This document shows, piece by piece, positions 1 through 54,879 of a stretch of 64,000 nt of DNA. The first letter of the stretch is position 1; each line of letters starts with the position of its first letter. A program made the position numbers and the translations under genes. The notes under the pieces are model-generated. The model had not been told where the DNA came from. It was given only the letters and a program-made list of their open reading frames with translations, and did not search any database. The DNA is taken from the NCBI RefSeq assembly GCF_055900595.2, contig NZ_CM148325.1; one strand, 5' to 3'.

Positions 1-561
1 AGTCTCGGAGATAAGTACGAAGGCGTGACCGCCCAGCCAGTTGAGTTCAGCGAAAACGGCGTTATCGATAATCTTTTTGACCGTCAGTTAGATTTTATAA
101 TCTCCCCACAGCATGTATCTGCACGAGTTCAGGAACTGGAAAACCTGACTATTAGTGAACTACCACCGCTGCGATTGGGCTTTCTCGTTTCTCGCCGTTA
201 TGAAGAGCGACAAGAGCAAGAGTTGCTTCAGGAGCTACCCTGGCTACAAATGCGCTTTCAGAACCGGGCCAACTTCGAAGCAATGATTGATGCGAATATG
301 CGTCCTTGTGGGATCAATCCCACCATTATTTATCGACCTTACAGTTTTATGGCCAAAATCAGCGCCGTGGAGCGCGGACATTTTCTGACGGTGATCCCGC
401 ATTTTGCCTGGCGACTGGTTAATCCGGCAACGCTGAAATATTTTGATGCGCCGCACAGGCCGATGTATATGCAGGAATATCTTTATTCAATCAGAAATCA
501 TCGTTATACCGCCACGATGCTTCAGCATATTGCTGAAGATCGTGACGGGACGAGTCATTAA
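1..561 (+). CDS. ygfI: LysR-family transcriptional regulator YgfI, C-terminal part (5' end cut by window edge)
   Basis: Frame open from base 1 to the stop at 559-561; translated ORF track entry 25..561 resembles the LysR substrate-binding domain; lies next to scpC as in E. coli. Confidence 0.75.
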   Translation, partial: SLGDKYEGVTAQPVEFSENGVIDNLFDRQLDFIISPQHVSARVQELENLTISELPPLRLGFLVSRRYEERQEQELLQELPWLQMRFQNRANFEAMIDANMRPCGINPTIIYRPYSFMAKISAVERGHFLTVIPHFAWRLVNPATLKYFDAPHRPMYMQEYLYSIRNHRYTATMLQHIAEDRDGTSH

Positions 562-2036
562 CCCAGCATCGAGCCGGTTGCAATTAAATTACGGTGTAAA
601 TCGAAGACGTGGCTAAGATCGTGGTGAATATGTCCGCCGGGCGCATTTTCCAGATAGCGATGCAGATAATCCCTATACATAGGATGTGCACAATTATCAA
701 TGATGGTGCGGGCGCGTTGAAGCGGGGAAAGACCACGCAGATCGGCGATCCCTTGTTCGGTGATGATCACTTTGACGCTGTGTTCGCTGTGATCAACATG
801 GCTGCACATTGGCACGACGGTTGAGATCTTGCCTTCTTTAGCAATCGACGGGGCCATAAAGATCGACAGATACGCGTTGCGTTCAAAATCACCGCTGCCA
901 CCGATGCCGTTCATCAGATCGACCCCGGCTACGTGCGTTGAGTTGGCATGCCCGTAAATATCAAACTCCAGGCCGACGTTCAGAGCGATGACGCCCAGAC
1001 GACGGATGATTTCCGGGTTATTGGAAATCTCCTGCGGACGCAACACAATGCGGCTGGCAAAGTAATCCATATTGTCGTAAATCTTGCGCAGGGAATCGGC
1101 CGAGATAGTCAGGCTGGAGGCGCTGGCCCCGCTGATTTTGCCCGTTTCCAGTAAATGCACCACCGATTCCTGTAGCACTTCCGAATACATCATGAACGGA
1201 GGAATTTCCGGGTTTTCCCCTAGTCGCGCCATGACTGCATTATTGATATTGCCCACGCCACTTTGCAGCGGCAGAAATTCCGGTGGAATACGCCCATGCG
1301 CCATTTCCTGCAACAAGAACGTGACCACGTTATCGGCAATCTGCTGGCACATGGGATTTTGCTTATCCAGCATATTACCGGCGTCGGGCAAGTTGGTTTC
1401 CACGACGGCGACAATCTTTTTCGGATCGATTTGCACATAGCGGGTACCGACGCGATCCATTGCATGGAAGATCGACACGCTATTGCGCCGCGGTGGCGCG
1501 CCAGGAATCACAATATCCGCCAGTTCTGCAACGCGCGGATCGTGATAGTGATTGAGTTCAATGATCACTTTCTTCGCCCGCAGCAGCCAGGTCGGCGCAT
1601 TACCGATCCCGCTGGTTAACCAGACTCGGCCATCCGGTGCCAGTGCCGATGCTTCAATGACGGCAACATCAATTTCGCCGAAGAAACCGTAATTGACCAT
1701 TTGCGCCACTTCGCTCAAATGCAGGTCAACGAAACTCACCGCGCCCTGATTGATCTTTTTACGTAAACCGGACGATGTTTGATATGGCGCACGCCAGGAA
1801 ACAGCATCGGCGTCAGAAAGTACATCGTCAGCGGCGGCGCTGATTGACGCCCCCGTCAGCAGGCGAATTTGATACGGCTTTTTGGCCTCATGCTGTTCGT
1901 TAGCTCTGCGGGCAATCGCGTTGGGTAGGGCTTTCGGCGAACCCGCCGGGGTAAAGCCGCTAAATGCCACCATGTCGTTATGCTGGATAATTTCTGCCGC
2001 TTCATCGGCGGTCATCCTTGTCCACTGAGTTTCCAT
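558..2036 (-). CDS. scpC: propionyl-CoA:succinate CoA-transferase
   Basis: 492-aa ORF, length and sequence match E. coli ScpC/YgfH; last gene of the sbm operon. Confidence 0.9.
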   Translation of the reverse strand: METQWTRMTADEAAEIIQHNDMVAFSGFTPAGSPKALPNAIARRANEQHEAKKPYQIRLLTGASISAAADDVLSDADAVSWRAPYQTSSGLRKKINQGAVSFVDLHLSEVAQMVNYGFFGEIDVAVIEASALAPDGRVWLTSGIGNAPTWLLRAKKVIIELNHYHDPRVAELADIVIPGAPPRRNSVSIFHAMDRVGTRYVQIDPKKIVAVVETNLPDAGNMLDKQNPMCQQIADNVVTFLLQEMAHGRIPPEFLPLQSGVGNINNAVMARLGENPEIPPFMMYSEVLQESVVHLLETGKISGASASSLTISADSLRKIYDNMDYFASRIVLRPQEISNNPEIIRRLGVIALNVGLEFDIYGHANSTHVAGVDLMNGIGGSGDFERNAYLSIFMAPSIAKEGKISTVVPMCSHVDHSEHSVKVIITEQGIADLRGLSPLQRARTIIDNCAHPMYRDYLHRYLENAPGGHIHHDLSHVFDLHRNLIATGSMLG

Positions 2037-2059
2037 TTTTACTCCTTCGTTCGCAGGGA

Positions 2060-2845
2060 TTAATGACCAACGAAATTAGGTTTACGTTTTTCGAGGAAAG
2101 CGTTCATCCCTTCCTGGTAATCTTCGCTGTCATAAACCGCGCGGCGCATCCCCTGAATACGTTCAAATTCATCGGAGTTCATGGTGTGCGCTTCGCCCAG
2201 TACACGCAGTTCTTCTTTGATAACGGCAATGGCTAACGGCGCTTTCTCAGAGATGTGGTGCGCCATTTGTAAGGTGAAATCTTCCAGTTCTTCCACTTCC
2301 ACAACATGGTTGAGGATGCCGACAGCCAGCGCGCGCTGGGCTGTGATTGGCGAAGCGGTAAAAATCAGCTCTTTGACAATGTGGAAGCCCGCGTCGCGGG
2401 TCAGGTTGTGAATGCCGACCAGGTTATACGGGACGCCGAGGTTTACAGGCGTCATTGAGAAGGTTGAGGTACTGGCGGCGATGATCAGATCGGAATTCAT
2501 GATCATTTCAAATGCGCCCCCCCAAACACTACCTTCCACCATCGAAATGATCGGTTTCGGGAATTTTTGGATCATGCGGGTGATTTGACGCAACGGATCA
2601 TCATAGGAGAGCGGATCGCGACCGCCAGACGGCAGTTCGTGAATATCGTGACCTGCGGAGAAGACTTTGGATCCACTCGGCGCGCGCAAAATGATACAGC
2701 GAATTTCCGGCCGGTTGAGATCGCTTAATGCCTGCATAAGATCATCAATAAAGACTTTACTTAAGGCATTAAGTTTTCGGCCATAGTTAAACTCAATGAC
2801 CGCCACTTTGTTGATAGTGACAACGTTCACATACTGATAAGACAT
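2060..2845 (-). CDS. scpB: methylmalonyl-CoA decarboxylase (crotonase fold)
   Basis: ORF 2060..2887; internal ATG at 2843-2845 gives the 261-aa protein beginning MSYQYVNVVTINKVAVIEF. Confidence 0.88.
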   Translation of the reverse strand: MSYQYVNVVTINKVAVIEFNYGRKLNALSKVFIDDLMQALSDLNRPEIRCIILRAPSGSKVFSAGHDIHELPSGGRDPLSYDDPLRQITRMIQKFPKPIISMVEGSVWGGAFEMIMNSDLIIAASTSTFSMTPVNLGVPYNLVGIHNLTRDAGFHIVKELIFTASPITAQRALAVGILNHVVEVEELEDFTLQMAHHISEKAPLAIAVIKEELRVLGEAHTMNSDEFERIQGMRRAVYDSEDYQEGMNAFLEKRKPNFVGH

Positions 2846-2855
2846 AAAAATTCCT

Positions 2856-3851
2856 TTAATCAAAATATTGCGTCTGGATAAATTCACTGAGCTGTCGCAG
2901 GCCGGTGCGCGGTGAGAGCGTATTGTTTTTGACCGCTAAAAGCGTCTGGCGGTAATAGCGATCGAAATCTTCATTCGCGAACAGGTGATTCAGTACTTCT
3001 TCTTCGGTTTGTTTACGCAGCCATTCCACCGATTGTTGTTGCCGCACTTGCTGTAAACGACCACTGGCAGTTAGCGCGGTTTTGAAGTCGATGATGGCGT
3101 GCCAGATCTCATCGATTCCACGTTTTTCCAGTGCGCTACAAGTCAGAACTCGTGGCTGCCATTCGTCGTATTTACGTCGCAGAATATGCAGGGCACTCTC
3201 GTACATATGCCGGGCAATGGCGACATTGGTATGGTTATCGCCATCGTCTTTGTTGATAACGATCAGATCTGCCACTTCCATCAGCCCCTTTTTAATCCCC
3301 TGCAGATCATCGCCGCCACCGGCAATTTGCAACGAGATAAAACAGTCCACCATGCGGGCGACTTCCGTTTCCGACTGTCCGACGCCAACCGTTTCGACAA
3401 TCACTACGTCATAACCCGCCGCTTCGCATAACAGCATTAATTCCCGCGCTCGCTGACTGGCACCGCCCAGATGGCCGGAGGATGGTACCGGGCGAATAAA
3501 CGCCGCCTCGGCACGCGCCAGGTCATTCATGCGGGTTTTATCTCCGAGAATGCTACCGCCAGTGACCGGGCTGCTGGGATCGACCGCAATAACTGCAACC
3601 TTTAGTCCCTCACGAATCAACAACATGCCAAAGGCTTCAAGAAAGGTACTTTTCCCCGCGCCGGGTGTGCCGGTAACACCCAGTCGCAGGGCGTTACCAC
3701 AGAACGGCATAATGGCATCAAGCAGTTGCGTACTTAGCGCCTGATGACGCGGGTGACGGCTTTCCACCAGCGTCATGGCCTGGGCGAGCGTGGCACGCTC
3801 ACCCTGACGTAAGCGGCGAATACTTTCTGCCAGCGTAGCTTCATTAATCAT
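2856..3851 (-). CDS. argK: methylmalonyl-CoA mutase-associated GTPase (MeaB/ArgK)
   Basis: 331-aa ORF with P-loop [11 protein letters not shown]; start overlaps the scpA stop. Confidence 0.9.
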
Positions 3852-5988
3852 GATGCTGGCTTATCAGATTCAGTACGTCGCGCACGCTGTCGAGCATAGG
3901 CGTACCTGGACCATAAATCGCCGCCACGCCGCGCTCCTGCAGGAAGGCGTAATCCTGCGGCGGAATGACGCCACCCGCGACCACGCAGATATCTTCGCGT
4001 CCCCATTTTTTCAGCGCTTCGACCAGTTCCGGGATCAGCGTTTTATGACCGGCAGCCAGTGAAGATGCGCCCACTACGTGAACGTCGTTTTCTACTGCCA
4101 GGCGGGCGATCTCTTCAGGTGTAGAGAACATCGGGCTTAAATCTACGTCGAAACCGAGATCGGAATAGGCGCTGGCGATCACTTTCGCGCCGCGATCGTG
4201 CCCATCCTGGCCCATTTTGGCGATCAGAATGCGCGGGCGACGACCATTGTCGGCAAGGAACTGCTCCGTTTGCGCAACAATGGCATCGAACTCGGAGGCC
4301 GATTTCTCAGACTGATGATAGCTTTGCGCAATCACGCCGGTAACACACTGGCTTGGCACCAGATAACGGTCGAAAGCGGCTTCCAGCGCATCGGAAATTT
4401 CACCCAGGGTGGCGCGAACGCGAGCGGCATTAACAGCGGCAGCCAGCAGGTTTTCGTTATGCTGTGCGGCGTGAGTCAGGGCGTTCAACGCGGCGGTTAC
4501 GGCGGCATCATCACGGGTGGCGCGAATGCGTTCCAGCGAAGCAATTTGCTCGTTACGCACCATCACGTTGTCGATCTCAAGTACATCGGTTTCGTCTTCG
4601 TGATCCAGTTTGTACTTGTTGACACCAACGATGACACGTTTTCCCTGATCGATCAGCGACTGTTCACGCGCTGAGGCTTCTTCGATCATTCGTTTTGGCA
4701 GACCTGCTTCGATCGCTTTCGCCATACCTCCGGCTTCGTTGATCTGTTGGATAATGGCTCTGGCTTGTTTGACGATTTGATCGGTCAGCGATTCAACGTA
4801 ATAGGATCCGGCCAGTGGATCGACGGTGCGGCAGAGTTCTGATTCTTCCTGAATGATGATCTGGGTATTGCGGGCAATGCGTGCTGAGAAATCGGTAGGC
4901 AAACCAAGCGCTTCATCAAAGGCGTTGGTATGCAGTGACTGAGTACCGCCCAGCGTTGCAGCCAGTGCTTCAATGGTGGTGCGGATAACGTTGTTATACG
5001 GATCCTGTTCAGTCAGGCTCCAGCCTGAGGTCTGGCAGTGGGTACGCAGCGCCAGTGATTTCGGATCCTGTGCGCCAAATCCACTGACCGCTTCGCTCCA
5101 TAAATAACGTGCCGCACGCAACATGGCGACGTTCATAAACAGATCCATGCCAATGCCGAAGAAAAACGACAGGCGAGGAGCGAAGTCATCAATTTTCAGC
5201 CCAGCGGAGATTGCTGCTTTGATGTACTCAATCCCATCAGCGAGCGTAAATGCTACCTGCTGCACGCAGTTGGCACCCGCTTCACCCATATGGTAACCGC
5301 TGATACTGATGGTATTAAATCGCGGCATGTTGCCGGAACACCAGGCGATGATGTCTGCGATAATACGCATTGACGGTTTTGGCGGGTAAATATAGGTGTT
5401 GCGGCAAAGATACTCTTTGAGGATATCGTTCTGAATGGTGCCTGTCAGTTTATCGGGCGTAACTCCTTGCTCTTCTGCGGCGACGATATAAAACGCCAGT
5501 ACGGGTAACACTGCGCCATTCATGGTCATCGAAACCGACATTTTATCCAGCGGGATCTGGTCGAACAGGACTTTCATATCTTCCACGGTGTCGATAGCAA
5601 CGCCCGCTTTGCCGACGTCGCCCGCCACGCGCGGGTTATCGGAGTCGTAGCCACGGTGGGTGGCAAGGTCAAACGCAACGGAAAGACCTTTTTGCCCGGC
5701 GGCCAGGTTACGGCGATAAAAAGCGTTAGACTCTTTTGCTGTCGAGAAACCGGCATACTGACGGATAGTCCACGGTTGGGCGGTATACATAGTGGCACGC
5801 GGGCCACGAACGTAGGGTGGCAAACCAGGAAGGGTACCAGTCACTTCCAGATTATCGAGATCGGCTTCAGTATACAGCGGCTTGATGGCGATCCCTTCTG
5901 CGGTTTGCTGAACCAGCGAGTCGACAGTTTTCTCCCGACGACTCAATTCCTTGTTGGCAATCTGTTGCCACTCCTGCACGTTAGACAT
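3844..5988 (-). CDS. scpA: methylmalonyl-CoA mutase (B12-dependent)
   Basis: ORF 3844..6009; ATG at 5986-5988 gives 714 aa beginning [15 protein letters not shown], with a GGAG Shine-Dalgarno upstream. Confidence 0.9.
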
Positions 5989-6191
5989 TATTTGCTCCAT
6001 AAAACGCAATCAAAATGAGGGTATTTGCGCTTACGGTGAGCTTTTTACGTGGGTTTGTCGCCAGCAAAAAAAATGCATCCAGACGTCGTTTTTTGCCGCC
6101 TGAGATTTGTCTATTTTGTGATGTGATTCAAGGAATACAAAAAGAACTGGAGGTGATGCCTGGTATGTATTACCAGGCATTATTTGATGGA

Positions 6192-7085
6192 TTATTCCTG
6201 ACGAAGAACTTTGTGACCATAATCGAGCAACGCATCAGTGACTTTACGCATCATGCGGCTTTCAGGAGCAAAGCGGTGCCAGTAGAGCATCCGGCGTTGA
6301 AATAGCCCTGGCGTTAAGTCAATCAGTTCGCCGCTGGCCAGCTCTTTCTCGATTTGCAGGTGCGGGATCATACAGCAGGTGGTGCCCTGACGAGCAAGTT
6401 GCACGAATGCTTCCGAAGAATTAACGATATGGCACGGTACGCTGCCTGGGGGCAGATCGAAGTTTTGCTGCAAAAAGGCCTGGTGCATATCGTCAAGATG
6501 GTCAAAGGCGACCACAGGTGCTTTCAATAATGCCGAACGCGTTACGCCGTTAGGGAAATATTTTTCGGCAAACGGTTTTGAGCTGACGAACAGATAGTCA
6601 AGCGCACCGAGCTTATCGACAAGACAACTCGGCAGCGCCTGATGTTGAATACTCACCGCGCCGACCACTTCGCCGCGGCGCAGACGTTCCTGAGTGCGGG
6701 TTTCATCTTCTACCTGCAAGTTGAGGCGGATAGGCGAATCAGCTAACACAGGAGCCAGCGCCGGAAGCAACCACGTCGCCAGACTGTCAGCGTTGACCGC
6801 CAGTGAAAGCAGCAGCGGAGTTGAACCGGTTTGTTCATCGCCCAGCCACTCTTCTTCCAGTAACTCCACCTGGCGTAGCAGTGCCAGCAGTTTTTGCCCT
6901 TGTTCCGTCGGGCGCGGCGGTACGGTACGCACCAACAGCGGCTGCCCGAACATATTTTCCAGTTGCTTAATGCGCTGTGAGACGGCTGATTGTGTAATGC
7001 ACAGCTTTTGTGCCGCGCGCTCAAATCCTCGTTCACGTATCACCGCATCCAGTGCCTGTAATGTTCTGTAGTCCGGGCGTTTCAT
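6192..7085 (-). CDS. argP: LysR-family regulator ArgP (IciA)
   Basis: ORF 6192..7151; ATG at 7083-7085 gives 297 aa beginning [28 protein letters not shown], with an HTH near the N-terminus. Confidence 0.9.
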
Positions 7086-7545
7086 TGCTGTTGTCTGCTC
7101 CTGGTAAATGCTTTTTCCTGCACTATGACACAATTTTGCGTCAGGTTGCATATACCGAAGCCGTCGGCGGGTACATTTGTATCAGTGGTTAAACACGCAG
7201 CTTAAAAGATCAGGGATTTGCGCTATTGCATTTCGCTCAGCGAGTTCGCGCCCTGGAGCGGCATACCCAGACCTTTATATGCTTTATTTGCCGGGCGAAA
7301 GGGGATGCCCGCCATTGCGCGATATTTTATGGATGAGTTAACCACGCGGCTTGCCAACGGGGTCTGAATCGCTTTTTTTGTATATACTCGTCATACTTCA
7401 AGTTGCATGTGCTGTGTCTGCGTTCGCTCACCCCAGTCACTTACTTCTGTAAGCTCCTGGGGATTCACTCTCTTGTCGCCTTCCTGCAACTCGAATTATT
7501 TAGAGTATAATGCGAGTGAAATTTCATACCACAGGCGAAACGATC

Positions 7546-8205
7546 ATGACGCAGGATGAATTGAAAAAAGCAGTAGGATGGGCGGCACTTCAGTATGTTC
7601 AGCCCGGCACCATTGTTGGTGTAGGTACAGGTTCCACCGCCGCACACTTTATTGATGCGCTCGGCACGATGAAAGGCCAGATTGAAGGGGCCGTTTCCAG
7701 TTCGGATGCGTCCACTGAAAAACTGAAAAGCCTCGGCATTCACGTTTTTGATCTCAACGAAGTCGACAGCCTTGGCATCTACGTTGATGGCGCAGATGAA
7801 ATCAACGGCCACATGCAAATGATCAAAGGCGGCGGCGCGGCGCTGACCCGTGAAAAAATCATTGCTTCGGTTGCGGAAAAATTTATCTGTATTGCAGACG
7901 CTTCTAAGCAGGTTGATATTCTGGGCAAATTCCCGCTGCCAGTAGAAGTTATCCCGATGGCACGTAGTGCAGTGGCGCGCCAGCTGGTGAAACTGGGCGG
8001 TCGTCCGGAATACCGTCAGGGCGTGGTGACCGATAACGGCAACGTGATCCTCGACGTCCACGGCATGGAAATCCTTGACCCGATAGCGATGGAAAACGCC
8101 ATAAATGCGATTCCGGGCGTGGTGACTGTTGGCTTGTTTGCTAACCGTGGCGCGGACGTTGCGCTGATTGGCACACCTGACGGTGTCAAAACCATTGTGA
8201 AATGA
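7546..8205 (+). CDS. rpiA: ribose-5-phosphate isomerase A
   Basis: ATG at 7546 inside ORF 7510..8205 gives 219 aa [18 protein letters not shown]; a TATAAT-like box lies near 7505-7510. Confidence 0.92.
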
Positions 8206-8460
8206 TCTGACGGGGGAACCTCCCCCGTTAAAAAAATTCTCTTCATTAAATTTGGTGACATGTGTCACGTTTTTACCTGGCTATTGTCGATTGCTCTAAA
8301 TAAATCCTCTAATCCAGCATATTCATCCAAGAAAAACCTTTGCGTGATATTTCCTCAACATCGCGACGCAAACGTTCATATTGCCGCAATATTATTTTTT
8401 GATATGTTGAAAGGCGGATGCAAATCCGCACACAACATTTCAAAAGACAGGATTGGGTAA

Positions 8461-9693
8461 ATGGCAAAGGTATCGCTGGAGAAAGACAAGATTAAGTTTC
8501 TGCTGGTAGAAGGCGTGCACCAAAAGGCGCTGGAAAGCCTTCGTGCAGCGGGTTACACCAACATCGAATTTCACAAAGGCGCGCTGGATGATGAACAATT
8601 AAAAGAATCCATCCGCGATGCCCACTTCATCGGCCTGCGATCCCGTACCCATCTGACTGAAGACGTGATCAACGCCGCAGAAAAACTGGTCGCTATTGGC
8701 TGTTTCTGTATCGGAACGAACCAGGTTGATCTGGATGCAGCTGCAAAACGCGGGATCCCGGTATTTAACGCACCGTTCTCTAATACGCGCTCTGTTGCGG
8801 AGCTGGTAATTGGCGAACTTCTGCTGCTATTGCGCGGCGTACCGGAAGCCAACGCTAAAGCGCACCGTGGTGTCTGGAACAAGCTGGCAGCTGGCTCTTT
8901 TGAAGCGCGCGGCAAAAAGCTGGGTATCATCGGCTATGGTCATATTGGTACACAGTTGGGCATTCTGGCTGAATCGCTGGGAATGTATGTTTACTTTTAT
9001 GATATTGAAAACAAACTGCCGCTGGGCAACGCCACTCAGGTACAGCATCTTTCTGATCTGCTGAATATGAGCGATGTGGTGAGTTTGCATGTGCCAGAGA
9101 ATCCGTCTACCAAAAATATGATGGGCGCGAAAGAGATTTCGCTAATGAAGCCCGGCTCGTTGCTGATTAATGCCTCGCGCGGAACGGTGGTGGATATTCC
9201 GGCACTGTGTGATGCGCTGGCGAGCAAACACCTGGCAGGTGCGGCAATCGATGTCTTTCCGACGGAACCGGCGACCAACAGCGATCCGTTTACCTCTCCG
9301 CTGTGCGAGTTCGATAACGTCCTTCTGACGCCACATATTGGCGGTTCGACTCAGGAAGCACAGGAGAATATCGGTCTGGAAGTTGCAGGTAAATTAATCA
9401 AGTACTCTGACAATGGCTCAACGCTCTCTGCGGTGAACTTCCCGGAAGTCTCGCTGCCACTGCATGGTGGGCGTCGTCTGATGCACATCCACGAAAACCG
9501 TCCGGGCGTGTTAACTGCGCTGAACAAAATCTTCGCCGAGCAGGGCGTTAACATCGCTGCACAGTATCTGCAAACCTCAGCGCAGATGGGTTATGTGGTT
9601 ATTGATATTGAAGCTGACGAAGACGTTGCCGAAAAAGCGCTGCAGGCAATGAAAGCTATTCCGGGCACCATTCGCGCCCGTCTGCTGTACTGA
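8461..9693 (+). CDS. serA: D-3-phosphoglycerate dehydrogenase
   Basis: 410-aa ORF MAKVSLEKDKIKFLLVEGVHQKALE with a C-terminal ACT domain. Confidence 0.95.
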   Translation: MAKVSLEKDKIKFLLVEGVHQKALESLRAAGYTNIEFHKGALDDEQLKESIRDAHFIGLRSRTHLTEDVINAAEKLVAIGCFCIGTNQVDLDAAAKRGIPVFNAPFSNTRSVAELVIGELLLLLRGVPEANAKAHRGVWNKLAAGSFEARGKKLGIIGYGHIGTQLGILAESLGMYVYFYDIENKLPLGNATQVQHLSDLLNMSDVVSLHVPENPSTKNMMGAKEISLMKPGSLLINASRGTVVDIPALCDALASKHLAGAAIDVFPTEPATNSDPFTSPLCEFDNVLLTPHIGGSTQEAQENIGLEVAGKLIKYSDNGSTLSAVNFPEVSLPLHGGRRLMHIHENRPGVLTALNKIFAEQGVNIAAQYLQTSAQMGYVVIDIEADEDVAEKALQAMKAIPGTIRARLLY

Positions 9694-9715
9694 TCTCCCT
9701 TCTTTAATAATCAAC

Positions 9716-9744
9716 GGGCAAGTCACTGGCTTGCCCGTTTTTTT
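9716..9744 (+). terminator. rho-independent terminator of serA
   Basis: GC stem gggcaagtcactggcttgccc followed by a T7 run. Confidence 0.6.
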
Positions 9745-10455
9745 GTGCACAGAAAACCCCCAGCTAGGCTGGGGGTTCCGGAAAGCTTTCAGCTTTGAGC
9801 CAGTTATTAAAACCCCTTTTGATTTGTTAAAACACCTTGCGGTCTGGCAACTGCAAGTGTCAAACAAGAAATCAAAAGGGGGTCCCAATGGGGGACGAAA
9901 AGAGCTTAGCGCACACCCGCTGGAACTGTAAATATCACATAGTTTTTGCGCCGAAATACCGAAGACTGGCGTTTTACGGAGAGAAGCGTAGGGCGATAGG
10001 CAGTATTTTGAGAAAGCTGTGTGAGTGGAAAAGCGTACGGATTCTGGAAGCAGAGTGCTGCGCAGATCATATCCATATGCTTGTGGAAATCCCACCCAAA
10101 ATGAGCGTATCCGGCTTTATGGGATATCTGAAAGGGAAAAGCAGTCTGATGCTTTACGAGCAGTTTGGGGATTTGAAATTCAAATACAGAAACAGGGAGT
10201 TCTGGTGCCGAGGGTACTATGTCGATACGGTGGGTAAGAACACGGCGAAGATACAGGACTACATAAAGCACCAGCTTGAAGAGGATAAAATGGGGGAGCA
10301 GTTATCGATTCCATATCCGGGCAGCCCGTTTACGGGCCGTAAGTAACGAAGTTGAATGCAAATGTCAGATCGTATGCGCCTGTTAGGGCGCGGCTGGTAA
10401 CAGAGCCTTACAGGCGCATTTGAAAAACCTCCGGCTATGCCGGAGGATATTTATT
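9745..10455 (+). mobile_element. IS200-type insertion sequence (IS200/IS605 family); boundaries approximate
   Basis: Single 152-aa tnpA; perfect palindrome cccccagc-tag-gctggggg at 9757-9775 on the upstream side and two hairpins downstream (about 10374-10420 and 10428-10447); no terminal inverted repeats, as expected for IS200. Confidence 0.7.
9888..10346 (+). CDS. tnpA: IS200 transposase TnpA (Y1 HuH transposase)
   Basis: ATG at 9888 within ORF 9837..10346; protein MGDEKSLAHTRWNCKYHIVFAPKYRR...ADHIHML...RGYYVDTVGKN matches IS200 TnpA, including the HxH motif and the C-terminal tyrosines. Confidence 0.9.
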   Translation: MGDEKSLAHTRWNCKYHIVFAPKYRRLAFYGEKRRAIGSILRKLCEWKSVRILEAECCADHIHMLVEIPPKMSVSGFMGYLKGKSSLMLYEQFGDLKFKYRNREFWCRGYYVDTVGKNTAKIQDYIKHQLEEDKMGEQLSIPYPGSPFTGRK

Positions 10456-10599
10456 ATCCCTTTTCCCGCGCATGTCACTGCCATTTGTAATGCGCTGCAA
10501 TTGCCTTTGCGAGTCTGCTCGAAGAAATAAATCAAAGCCAGATCAATGCGTTGTGCTTATTTAAAGAGAGTTTACGATGGCAGGGCAGCATGGGGCTGT

Positions 10600-10743
10600 A
10601 ACGGTAAAGCCCTCACCGAAGCGAGGGCTTGAAGGAGAAGGGTTATGATGCGACTCGTCATCATACTGATTGTACTGTTACTGATAAGTTTGCCAGCTTA
10701 TTAACAGTCAGTCACAGGGGAGGAGTCATCCTCCCTTACCCTT
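10600..10743 (-). ncRNA. sibC: SibC antisense sRNA (antitoxin of ibsC); ends approximate
   Basis: Minus-strand sigma70-like promoter (TTGACA at 10779-10774, 17-bp spacer, TAATTT at 10756-10751) reading across ibsC; hairpin gccctc-accgaag-cgagggc at about 10611-10630. Confidence 0.5.
10645..10704 (+). CDS. ibsC: type I toxin IbsC (19-aa hydrophobic peptide)
   Basis: atgatgcgactcgtcatcatactgattgtactgttactgataagtttgccagcttattaa encodes MMRLVIILIVLLLISLPAY, preceded by the Shine-Dalgarno gaaggagaag; located between serA and fau as in K-12. Confidence 0.7.
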   Translation: MMRLVIILIVLLLISLPAY

Positions 10744-10804
10744 ACTCACTAAATTAGGTTAAAGAATCAACGATGTCAATCAGGGCGATGCAGGTGTGTC
10801 GCCC

Positions 10805-11353
10805 TTACCACTCCCAGACTTTCGACGGTGTAACCACCGCAGGAAGTGGGATATCCCACTCTTCAACGGGGAGTTTTTCCACCAACTGACAATCATGCGC
10901 ATAACCCACCGGTTGCATTTGATAGCTCTGCCAGTTTTGTAAGGTCCGATCATAAAAACCACCGCCCATTCCCAGGCGCTGACCGTACTCATCAAAGGCG
11001 ACCAGCGGTGTGATCAACACGTCTAATCGGGAAAGGGGTAGCACGTCACGCACATCCAGTTTTGGCTCATGGATCTTCAACCTGTTCATCACCAGTTCGC
11101 TTTGCGGATGGTAATTCAGGAACAGCAAATTACCGGCACTAAAGGGATGCAAAACTGGAAGATATACGCGCTTACCGGCGCGCCAGAGTTGTTCTATGAG
11201 TGGCTGGGTGTCGAGTTCGCCATCAAAAGAGAGGAATACAGCGACCGTATGTGCCATCACCACCGGGGGATACGTCATCATCCGGGTAGCGGCTTGTTGA
11301 CCCATTTCCTGCTGTTGTTCCGGCGTTAACGCACGACGACGTTGCCGAATCAT
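10805..11353 (-). CDS. fau: 5-formyltetrahydrofolate cyclo-ligase
   Basis: ORF 10805..11407; ATG at 11351-11353 gives 182 aa beginning MIRQRRRALTPEQQQEMGQQ; directly downstream of ssrS. Confidence 0.85.
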   Translation of the reverse strand: MIRQRRRALTPEQQQEMGQQAATRMMTYPPVVMAHTVAVFLSFDGELDTQPLIEQLWRAGKRVYLPVLHPFSAGNLLFLNYHPQSELVMNRLKIHEPKLDVRDVLPLSRLDVLITPLVAFDEYGQRLGMGGGFYDRTLQNWQSYQMQPVGYAHDCQLVEKLPVEEWDIPLPAVVTPSKVWEW

Positions 11354-11425: not shown

Positions 11426-11611
11426 AGGGAATCTCCGAGATGCCGCCGCAGGCTGTAACCCTTGAACCCTTGGTTCAAGGTGAATGTGTCGTCACAGTTT
11501 TAAGGCTTCTCGGACGGACCGAGCATGCTCACCAACCGCGGAGCGCCACATTCTTGTGGTATGAAATATCGGCTCAGGGGACTGGCCCGCTTGCGAACAT
11601 CTCAGAGAAAT
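11426..11611 (-). ncRNA. ssrS: 6S RNA
   Basis: Reverse complement begins AUUUCUCUGAGAUGUUCGCAAGCGGGCCAGUCCCCUGAGCC and ends ...CAUCUCGGAGAUUCCCU, matching E. coli 6S RNA; 3' end good to about 2 nt. Confidence 0.92.
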
Positions 11612-21426: not shown

Positions 21427-21492
21427 TTTACTGATTCGACTATCTTCTAAAGGCGCTTCGGCGCCTTTGACACTGATGTCAAACTCAACATT

Positions 21493-21591
21493 GCCTGATG
21501 CACCTCGTTTATCAGGCCTACATAGTCTGTGCAATGTATTGAATTTGCACGATCTTGTAGGCTGGATAAGGCGTTCACGCCGCATCCGGCA
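21493..21591. repeat. BIME: two inverted REP units
   Basis: gcctgatgcacctcgtttatcaggcctaca and tgtaggctggataaggcgttcacgccgcatccggca match the REP consensus in opposite orientations. Confidence 0.65.
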
Positions 21592-21621
21592 TAATAAAAG
21601 CACTTTGTCATCAATAATTTG

Positions 21622-21649
21622 AAAGGCGCTTCGGCGCCTTTATTTTTTT
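21622..21649 (+). terminator. rho-independent terminator immediately upstream of the ygfF ribosome-binding site
   Basis: aaaggcgcttcggcgccttt stem followed by attttttt; the same 20-nt palindrome occurs at 21449-21468 without a T-run. Confidence 0.5.
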
Positions 21650-54839: not shown

Positions 54840-54879
54840 ATGAAAATGGCCGGATGGTATTACCCACCCGGCCTTTAAA

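Follow-up and report, generated by a model that had tools for sequence, protein, structure and literature searches.

Does the region between positions 558 and 6009 of the window (the whole 64,000-nucleotide stretch that was analysed, from contig NZ_CM148325.1 of RefSeq assembly GCF_055900595.2) carry an undamaged set of genes for turning succinate into propionate, and would such a set amount to a working pathway? Four successive open reading frames on the minus strand occupy this region in the ORF list. We conclude that they are almost certainly the sbm (‘sleeping beauty mutase’) operon scpA-argK-scpB-scpC of the Escherichia coli chromosome, with no gene missing or damaged (Table 1).

That these are the sbm genes, as an earlier note had proposed, is borne out by curated protein-family models, by near-identity to the K-12 proteins, and by RefSeq annotation, which places the same four genes at the corresponding position in MG1655 and in other E. 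coli genomes. The synteny around the operon likewise agrees with K-12 and other E. coli. All four products exceed their curated NCBIfam cut-offs, and the E-values against the family models range from 0 to 1e-146; thus, the identification is far beyond chance. The products are 99.2-99.6% identical to their K-12 counterparts, with one to five amino-acid differences each. The claim of intactness stands as well: every gene begins with ATG, ends with TAA, has no internal stop and matches the K-12 length, and comparison with K-12 reveals neither a frameshift nor a premature stop in any of the four. None of the cofactor and catalytic motifs that we looked for in the products has been lost.

Table 1. 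Features of the sbm locus and its surroundings, in positions of the window.
Feature	Position	Strand	Remarks
srsR (ygfI) 3' part, LysR-family regulator, convergent with scpC	1..561	+	last 186 of 298 codons
scpC (ygfH), propionyl-CoA:succinate CoA-transferase	558..2036	-	492 aa, same length as K-12 b2920
scpB-scpC spacer, 23 nt	2037..2059	-	Shine-Dalgarno AAGGAG at 2042-2047; from junction sequence; annotated K-12 spacing equal
scpB (ygfG), biotin-independent methylmalonyl-CoA decarboxylase, crotonase superfamily	2060..2845	-	261 aa, same length as in K-12
argK-scpB spacer, 10 nt	2846..2855	-	AGGAATTTTT, carries the scpB Shine-Dalgarno; from junction sequence; annotated K-12 spacing equal
argK (ygfD/meaB), G3E P-loop GTPase chaperone of the mutase	2856..3851	-	331 aa, same length as K-12 b2918
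scpA (sbm), adenosylcobalamin-dependent methylmalonyl-CoA mutase	3844..5988	-	714 aa, same length as K-12 b2917
argP-scpA intergenic region, 203 nt	5989..6191	-	
argP (iciA), LysR-family regulator, neighbour outside the operon	6192..7085	-	297 aa, directly upstream of scpA

The product of scpA matches the methylmalonyl-CoA mutase model NF006944 over residues 4-713 of 714 (1252.5 bits against a cut-off of 876), and it contains the Pfam domains MM_CoA_mutase (PF01642, residues 28-539) and B12-binding (PF02310, residues 586-701). Both cobalamin fingerprints are present, DxHxxG as DGHDRG at 595-600 and SxL...GG as SSL...GG at 642-673, and among PDB entries the human and P. shermanii mutases match it best, with E-values of 1e-270 to 1e-278. 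Five residues differ from K-12 b2917 (L10I, H27Q, I398V, D417N and V537A), while the nucleotide identity of the gene is 97.25%. Given that 709 of its 714 residues are identical to those of the characterised K-12 enzyme, whose mutase biochemistry is known to us as cited in PMC5512728 and PMC3850637, ScpA would be expected to interconvert succinyl-CoA and methylmalonyl-CoA with adenosylcobalamin. Position 6009, given by the earlier note as the end of the operon, is the TTG of the longest reading frame and must be revised: the start of scpA is the ATG at 5988, which has a GGAG 6 nt upstream.

ArgK differs from K-12 b2918 at two residues. It scores 494.5 bits against the MeaB model NF006958 (cut-off 329), contains the Pfam domain MeaB (PF03308), and retains a Walker A motif (GTPGAGKS, 61-68), a switch/Walker B region (149-159, including ETVGVGQ at 153-159) and the NKxD motif (NKDD, 200-203). 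Its gene adjoins that of the B12-dependent mutase, and a physical interaction between the two K-12 proteins has been reported (Froese et al. 2009, as cited in PMC3850637).

ScpB differs from the crystallised E. coli enzyme (PDB 1EF8) by a single change, S117N, so that 260 of 261 residues agree. It matches the methylmalonyl-CoA decarboxylase model NF008506 over residues 1-261 (485 bits against a cut-off of 257) and the Pfam family ECH_1, and H66, G110 and Y140, which we take to be the active-site residues of the E. coli enzyme in 1EF8, are all present. A longer reading frame of 275 codons, beginning at GTG 2887 and overlapping argK by 32 nt, lacks a ribosome-binding site. We rejected this longer form since the ATG at 2845 follows such a site, AAGGA, and agrees with both the crystallised 261-residue protein and the current K-12 annotation. 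ScpC, which differs from K-12 b2920 at four residues, exceeds the cut-offs of two models, TIGR03458 (YgfH; 754.3 bits against 658.7) and NF053853 (602 bits against 500), and it contains the N- and C-terminal AcetylCoA_hydro domains (PF02550 and PF13336).

One might ask whether the genes are misnamed paralogues, for instance a mutase of the isobutyryl-CoA type, a generic enoyl-CoA hydratase, and either an acetyl-CoA hydrolase or a butyryl-CoA:acetate transferase. Many enoyl-CoA hydratase models do match ScpB, but at no more than 161 bits against cut-offs of at least 237; the butyryl-CoA:acetate CoA-transferase model NF053666 gives ScpC 709.7 bits, which is below its own cut-off of 740; and the partial match of ScpA to IcmF reaches 350.7 bits against a cut-off of 1500. 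By contrast, all products pass the sbm-specific equivalog models, only one to five residues separate them from biochemically characterised K-12 proteins, and ScpB is essentially the crystallised enzyme. The K-12 comparison, the NCBIfam scores and the 1EF8 match thus effectively refute this reading, to which we assign next to no probability.

The four genes, accepted as those of the sbm operon, lie on one strand between argP and the convergent srsR, leaving no space for an internal promoter or terminator. This spacing suggests that they are co-transcribed as a single mRNA. The genes had been described as packed with overlapping start and stop codons, which is correct for one junction and not for the other two. 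The argK ATG overlaps the scpA stop in an 8-nt overlap (ATGATTAA, 3844-3851), whereas argK and scpB are separated by a 10-nt gap and scpB and scpC by a 23-nt gap. An overlap between argK and scpB arises only with the longest scpB reading frame (GTG 2887), not with the annotated form. Seven plus-strand reading frames of 96-158 aa, which lie over the operon or just upstream of it, have no Pfam match and were taken as mechanical products of GC-rich coding sequence.

The window is collinear with positions 3,066,837→3,003,274 of K-12, at 96-97.5% identity. Compared with the sbm operon of MG1655 (b2917-b2920), the gene order, strands, lengths and flanking genes argP and srsR are the same, and so are the spacings: the 8-nt scpA/argK overlap, the 10- and 23-nt gaps, the 4-nt srsR overlap and the 203-nt upstream region. 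The differences consist of nucleotide substitutions, 1.3-2.8% per operon gene (2.4% across the first 7.2 kb of the window) and nearly all of them synonymous, together with 12 amino-acid replacements summed over the operon. Upstream of scpA, a T in place of C adds an in-frame ATG four codons before the start, inside the ribosome-binding region. We do not expect these differences to matter. The copy is without unusual features, and the operon is already well described. A public E. coli contig agrees with positions 1-9838 at every base (100% identity), and each of the four products has an exact match under the same name in public collections, where the individual sequences occur on 297 to more than 1000 contigs. 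As a textbook E. coli locus whose allele is already in public databases, the region has little discovery value.

ScpA shares the architecture, a TIM barrel and a DxHxxG B12-binding domain, of the human MMUT/MMAA, Propionibacterium shermanii MutAB and Methylobacterium MCM/MeaB systems. As in systems of methylmalonyl-CoA mutase and MeaB, a MeaB-type G3E GTPase is encoded beside the mutase. The locus differs from these systems in that scpA encodes one product, which corresponds to the catalytic (large, alpha) subunit, and a gene for the small subunit is absent here. Moreover, the partners of the mutase in this locus are a biotin-independent decarboxylase and a CoA-transferase, in place of an epimerase together with a carboxylase or transcarboxylase.

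The weak native promoter of the operon should lie in the argP-scpA intergenic region. Just past argP, a second LysR-family gene that the earlier note left unmentioned and whose product differs from K-12 b2916 at one residue and scores 418 bits against NF002964 (cut-off 197), there is a terminator-like hairpin at 6156-6180 (-15.7 kcal/mol, z = -5.3), in which a G:C to A:T change relative to K-12 is compensatory. The 167 nt nearest scpA contain just four variable columns among four lineages, and their conservation exceeds that of synonymous sites. A promoter scan of positions 1-7500 returned 4 promoter-like sites against 6.9 expected, with no convincing sigma-70 promoter upstream of scpA; the only promoter-like match near this region, at 6219-6191, is within chance expectation. 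A terminator scan over the same positions was also at chance level (10 sites against 9.2 expected). Neither a cobalamin riboswitch nor any other Rfam family was found inside 558-6191, in searches at permissive thresholds over positions 1-11000 and at gathering thresholds over the whole window.

How the operon fares in the species bears on whether it has a function at all. Of the 5425 complete E. coli genomes with a match, 4273 (~79%) align to at least 80% of the operon query. A deletion of about 4.3 kb is found in 1114 of 5426 complete genomes (~21%), and other E. coli genomes carry an IS1 insertion or small length changes in the operon. Since the operon has been lost in about 21% of complete genomes, it is dispensable. 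The loss appears to be a single deletion allele in apparent B2-type lineages. In such strains (for example O18, CP007275) the locus occupies the same site between argP and srsR and retains sequence homologous to the window from the 5' part of scpA and from the 3' end of scpC. What these strains lack corresponds to positions ~712-5061, which take in most of scpC, the whole of scpB and argK, and two-thirds of scpA at its 3' end. Their remnants are annotated as pseudogenes, while the window holds the full ancestral operon. A full-text search for a published account of this deletion returned nothing relevant, which leaves publication elsewhere possible.

These losses, together with the absence of B12 synthesis in E. 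coli and reports that the operon is silent and poorly expressed (PMC5512728, PMC3850637), could indicate a cryptic relic in the course of becoming a pseudogene cluster, intact here by chance and without a selected function. The pattern of substitution argues otherwise. Relative to K-12, dN/dS ranges from 0.023 to 0.062 across the four genes (about 0.03), of the same order as for argP (0.011); such values, 0.02-0.06 in all four genes over ~2.5% nucleotide divergence, mean that the operon is held under strong purifying selection. By comparison, the scpA remnant of the deletion-carrying strains, which is truly abandoned, shows decay, having lost 39 nt in frame and accumulated about 8 amino-acid changes over 296 codons. 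Conservation of the upstream 167 nt beyond synonymous sites, and retention of at least 80% of the query by most matching genomes, also count against a relic, which we consider very improbable.

What the selected operon would do follows from the step assignments established for the K-12 proteins (Haller et al. 2000, as cited in PMC3850637 and PMC10832534). ScpA would convert succinyl-CoA into methylmalonyl-CoA using adenosylcobalamin, assisted by ArgK/MeaB as the mutase-associated GTPase, with argK coupled translationally to scpA through the 8-nt overlap. [quoted passage not shown] The predicted net reaction is succinate to propionate and CO2. For the copy in the window we infer, or take from the literature, its enzymatic activity, its weak native expression and its dependence on scavenged B12.

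The pathway had also been called intact in the earlier note. This holds at the level of four intact genes; according to the literature, however, the operon is expressed natively at very low levels and depends on B12 from outside, and it is disputed whether an epimerase is needed as well. Native amounts of the sbm enzymes do not suffice for a functional pathway according to PMC3850637, which also states that B12 is not made by E. coli. PMC5512728 describes the native operon as an incomplete pathway without a methylmalonyl-CoA epimerase, a description disputed by PMC10832534. In the account of PMC5512728, ScpA makes the (R)-form of methylmalonyl-CoA and decarboxylases use the (S)-form; in minimal medium with glucose, propionate was absent unless a methylmalonyl-CoA epimerase was added (PMC5512728). 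Whether ScpB uses the stereoisomer made by ScpA is thus denied by PMC5512728 and affirmed by PMC10832534 and, as cited there, by Haller et al. (2000).

The four genes, although intact, might therefore fall short of a self-sufficient route from succinate to propionate for lack of an epimerase, and their natural role might be in another flux, such as methylmalonyl-CoA or propionyl-CoA from amino-acid or odd-chain catabolism. In agreement with this, the epimerase that allowed propionate formation from glucose came from Propionibacterium, the operon raised the degradation of amino acids to propionate and permitted isoleucine degradation (PMC5512728), and no epimerase-like gene lies in or beside the operon, whose neighbours are argP and srsR. 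On the other hand, a Pseudomonas presumed to have no epimerase formed propionyl-CoA in mineral medium when given just scpA-argK-scpB (PMC10832534); succinyl-CoA was converted to propionyl-CoA in vitro by mutase and decarboxylase only (Haller et al. 2000, according to PMC10832534); and in several engineering studies, activation of the operon by itself yielded propionate or 1-propanol (PMC3850637). We regard the incomplete route as unlikely, if deserving of some weight. The need for an epimerase and the natural purpose of the operon are questions general to E. coli, rather than specific to this window. In practical terms, our analysis serves as an annotation check: the sbm operon of this strain is complete, which is not so in roughly a fifth of sequenced E. 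coli, and the strain thereby has the genetic potential for B12-dependent formation of propionyl-CoA and propionate that metabolic engineers exploit.

As to natural purpose, the ‘silent’ operon may be in regular use, for instance in decarboxylating gut succinate with scavenged cobamides. We offer this tentatively, at well below an even chance; purifying selection, the conserved upstream region and the loss through what appears to be a single deletion allele, which would point to a niche-dependent value, all fit it.

The stationary-phase regulator gene srsR (ygfI) might be thought to bear on the quietness of the operon. It does converge on scpC from the opposite strand, as had been claimed, and its end shares the 4 nt TTAA (558-561) with that gene; the window, however, begins inside srsR and so holds an incomplete copy. 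None of scpA, scpC, sbm, ygfH and yggE is named in the SrsR paper (PMC9181523), which therefore offers no support for SrsR as a regulator of the operon. Neither side of the scpC/srsR overlap has a terminator signal above chance, so that the convergent transcripts could extend into one another, and antisense interference at this point could contribute to keeping the operon quiet. The part of srsR present matches profile positions 112-294 of NF047842 (SrsR), and its 186 C-terminal residues are identical to those of K-12 YgfI. The apparent upstream stop in ygfI, suggested by an ORF listed at 25-561, is an artefact of how the ORF list picks the first start codon; the reading frame has no stop from base 1 onwards, and its translation equals that of K-12.

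An ORF list for positions 1-9000 shows four successive minus-strand ORFs (3844-6009, 2856-3851, 2060-2887 and 558-2036) occupying the interval reported as the sbm ("sleeping beauty mutase") operon of Escherichia coli, along with a plus-strand ORF that terminates at 561. When the start codons are taken from the annotation of E. coli K-12 MG1655 (K-12), these ORFs yield scpA, argK, scpB and scpC. All four genes begin with ATG, end with TAA, contain zero internal stops and equal their K-12 counterparts in length; they are 97.2-98.7% identical to K-12 in nucleotide sequence, with 5 (scpA), 2 (argK), 1 (scpB) and 4 (scpC) amino-acid differences. Neither a frameshift nor a premature stop was found in any of them and, at the level of the genes, the operon is intact, as the earlier note had claimed.

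The gene identities are likewise borne out, by NCBIfam scores above the family cut-offs, by the expected Pfam domain architectures, by near-identity to K-12 and by individual motifs. ScpA carries the cobalamin-binding motifs DGHDRG (595-600) and SxL...GG (642-673), and its closest solved relatives are the human and Propionibacterium mutases; ArgK has the Walker A motif GTPGAGKS, ETVGVGQ and NKDD; and ScpB, with H66, G110 and Y140 in place, shares 260 of its 261 residues with 1EF8, the crystal structure of the E. coli enzyme. As alternative identities, IcmF and the generic enoyl-CoA hydratases score under their own NCBIfam cut-offs, as does the butyryl-CoA:acetate transferase (709.7 against 740 bits).

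Features of the sbm operon and of other parts of the window, in window positions
Feature	Coordinates	Strand	Size	Match or remark
scpA	3844-5988	-	714 aa	NF006944 methylmalonyl-CoA mutase, 1252.5 bits (cut-off 876)
argK	2856-3851	-	331 aa	NF006958 MeaB, 494.5 bits (cut-off 329)
scpB	2060-2845	-	261 aa	NF008506 methylmalonyl-CoA decarboxylase, 485 bits (cut-off 257)
scpC	558-2036	-	492 aa	TIGR03458 YgfH, 754.3 bits (cut-off 658.7)
Hairpin 3' of argP	6156-6180	-	10-bp	-15.7 kcal/mol, z = -5.3
yqfE pseudogene	~7226-7386			LysR fragment
ERIC/IRU-type repeat	7387-7510		~124 nt	
IS200-like element	9744-10505	+	~720 nt	
STnc490, in IS200-like element	9755-9878			Rfam, 146 bits
Y1 transposase ORF, in IS200-like element	9888-10346		152 aa	Pfam Y1_Tnp, 126 bits
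SibC antitoxin RNA	10629-10779	-		136 bits; expected, intact
6S RNA	11428-11611	-		138 bits; expected, intact
Repeat-element difference from K-12	21468-21639			small
ES036/CssrF match	21514-21556			Rfam, 38.4 bits (threshold 37.6)
Repeat-element difference from K-12	54847-54874			small

The earlier note has the coding regions overlapping at their start and stop codons, and this is so for one of the three internal junctions. The scpA and argK genes share a genuine 8-nt overlap, ATGATTAA, as is usual where a mutase and its GTPase are translationally coupled. The other two junctions are gaps: 10 nt between argK and scpB (TAA-AGGAATTTTT-ATG, carrying the ribosome-binding site AAGGA), and 23 nt between scpB and scpC, with AAGGAG inside. 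An argK/scpB overlap would need the longest ORF, from GTG 2887, a start that has no ribosome-binding site. Similarly, an operon end at 6009 corresponds to the TTG of the longest ORF, and we place the scpA start instead at ATG 5988, which has GGAG at the proper distance upstream. A T where K-12 and the B2-type strain have C gives the window an additional in-frame ATG at 5998-6000 (minus strand), ATGGAGCAAATAATG, four codons ahead of the scpA ATG; its overlap with the GGAG ribosome-binding site makes use as a translation start unlikely. At the other end, srsR (the newer name of ygfI) does converge on scpC, with the TTAA at 558-561 common to both, but the gene is incomplete: since the window begins inside it, only the last 186 of its 298 codons are present, and that portion is identical to K-12. 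Once the number of overlaps, the start of scpA and the incomplete state of ygfI are corrected, the original observation is real and its interpretation right.

For the mechanism of the operon we draw on published studies of the K-12 proteins (Haller et al. 2000; Froese et al. 2009; both cited in PMC3850637). [quoted passage not shown] The statement that this pathway is intact holds insofar as its four genes are undamaged, but is limited by three reported features of E. coli. Native sbm expression is reportedly too low to make the pathway work, and the term silent has been applied to the operon (PMC3850637, PMC5512728). E. coli does not make B12, and the mutase therefore depends on external cobalamin (PMC3850637). 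Finally, according to PMC5512728, the pathway encoded by the native operon is incomplete and requires methylmalonyl-CoA epimerase, whereas in PMC10832534 scpA-argK-scpB alone gave propionyl-CoA in mineral medium, and the original in vitro reconstitution is also invoked against the requirement. No epimerase gene lies at the sbm locus.

A second LysR-family gene, argP, absent from the earlier note, lies on the same strand 203 nt upstream of scpA. Between the window lineage and K-12, the hairpin immediately 3' of its stop codon shows a compensatory G:C to A:T change, and it is probably the argP terminator, in which case it would shield scpA from read-through. Its T-run is displaced, and a simple terminator scan misses it. 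Among four lineages, the 167 nt closest to scpA contain 4 variable positions, and are more conserved than the synonymous sites of scpA itself (dS = 0.11). An Rfam search in and upstream of the operon found no family, cobalamin riboswitch included; promoter-like and terminator-like matches around the operon occur at chance frequency; and plus-strand ORFs overlapping it have no Pfam match. The paper characterising SrsR says nothing of the scp genes, and thus offers no evidence that convergent SrsR controls the operon.

Nei-Gojobori estimates of dN/dS between the window and K-12 are 0.027 (scpA), 0.023 (argK), 0.031 (scpB) and 0.062 (scpC), with 0.011 for neighbouring argP. At least 80% of the operon is covered in 4273 of 5425 matching genomes, and a probe across the junction of a single shared ~4.3-kb deletion is contiguous in 1114 of 5426 complete E. 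coli genomes (about 21%). Compared with locus L005 of strain O18 (CP007275, 2501-3758), the deletion corresponds to window ~712-5061: scpB and argK are gone entirely, along with most of scpC and the 3' two-thirds of scpA. What remains of scpA is a 5' fragment and of scpC a 3' fragment, each annotated as a pseudogene. Among the strains with the deletion are O18, O1:K1:H7 and O127:H6 strains, probably of phylogroup B2. Judged by its sequence, the orphaned scpA fragment shows pseudogene decay, or relaxed selection, having a 39-nt in-frame deletion and ~8 replacements in 296 codons, as against two between the window and K-12 across the same stretch; this contrast speaks for purifying selection where the operon is intact. 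A search of a limited full-text collection gave no account of the deletion. It is possible that selection actively maintains the "sleeping" operon and that one lineage has lost it, perhaps with some interplay from convergent srsR transcription, a reading that concerns E. coli biology generally rather than this window in particular. Strains retaining the operon have occasional lesions: an IS1 insertion in BHD6, and length differences of +1 nt in TOE3, -9 nt in USMARC-51688 and -27 nt in 01_3327.

By BLAST, the entire window is collinear, in reverse orientation, with MG1655 3,066,837→3,003,274, at 96-97.5% identity and with no more than a few small indels. Of 5426 complete RefSeq E. coli genomes, one fails to match the region; among the rest, the best match is just 99.2-99.4% identical. 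Looking up the exact ScpA sequence leads to public E. coli assemblies whose DNA agrees with the first 9.8-14 kb of the window at 99.98-100% identity, and public collections contain the exact protein sequences of all four genes, named as expected (297 to >1000 contigs). We conclude that the window represents a natural E. coli lineage whose allele is already on record, and that the sbm feature is known in every respect, down to its exact protein sequences.

Several smaller elements differ from K-12. The IS200-like element, between serA and the sibC/ibsC toxin-antitoxin locus, is missing from K-12 at the same site and present in near-identical public contigs. The ERIC/IRU-type repeat, between the yqfE remnant and rpiA, is absent from K-12 and found in strain 2020CK-00188; it contains what we take to be the exact reverse complement of the ERIC2 primer and an ERIC1R site with one mismatch, and in Rfam has a weak sub-threshold V_AS5 match alone. 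The yqfE pseudogene is itself shortened further, lacking ~64-77 nt that K-12 (3059504-3059581) and 2020CK-00188 have; the flanking alignments overlap by ~13 nt, which may reflect a short direct repeat where the deletion occurred. Finally, ~135 nt between gcvP and ygfF are 81% similar to an element that K-12 carries between yqeA and yqeB, a site where the window lacks it, and the ES036/CssrF match, barely over threshold, may simply reflect this gcvP-ygfF repeat.
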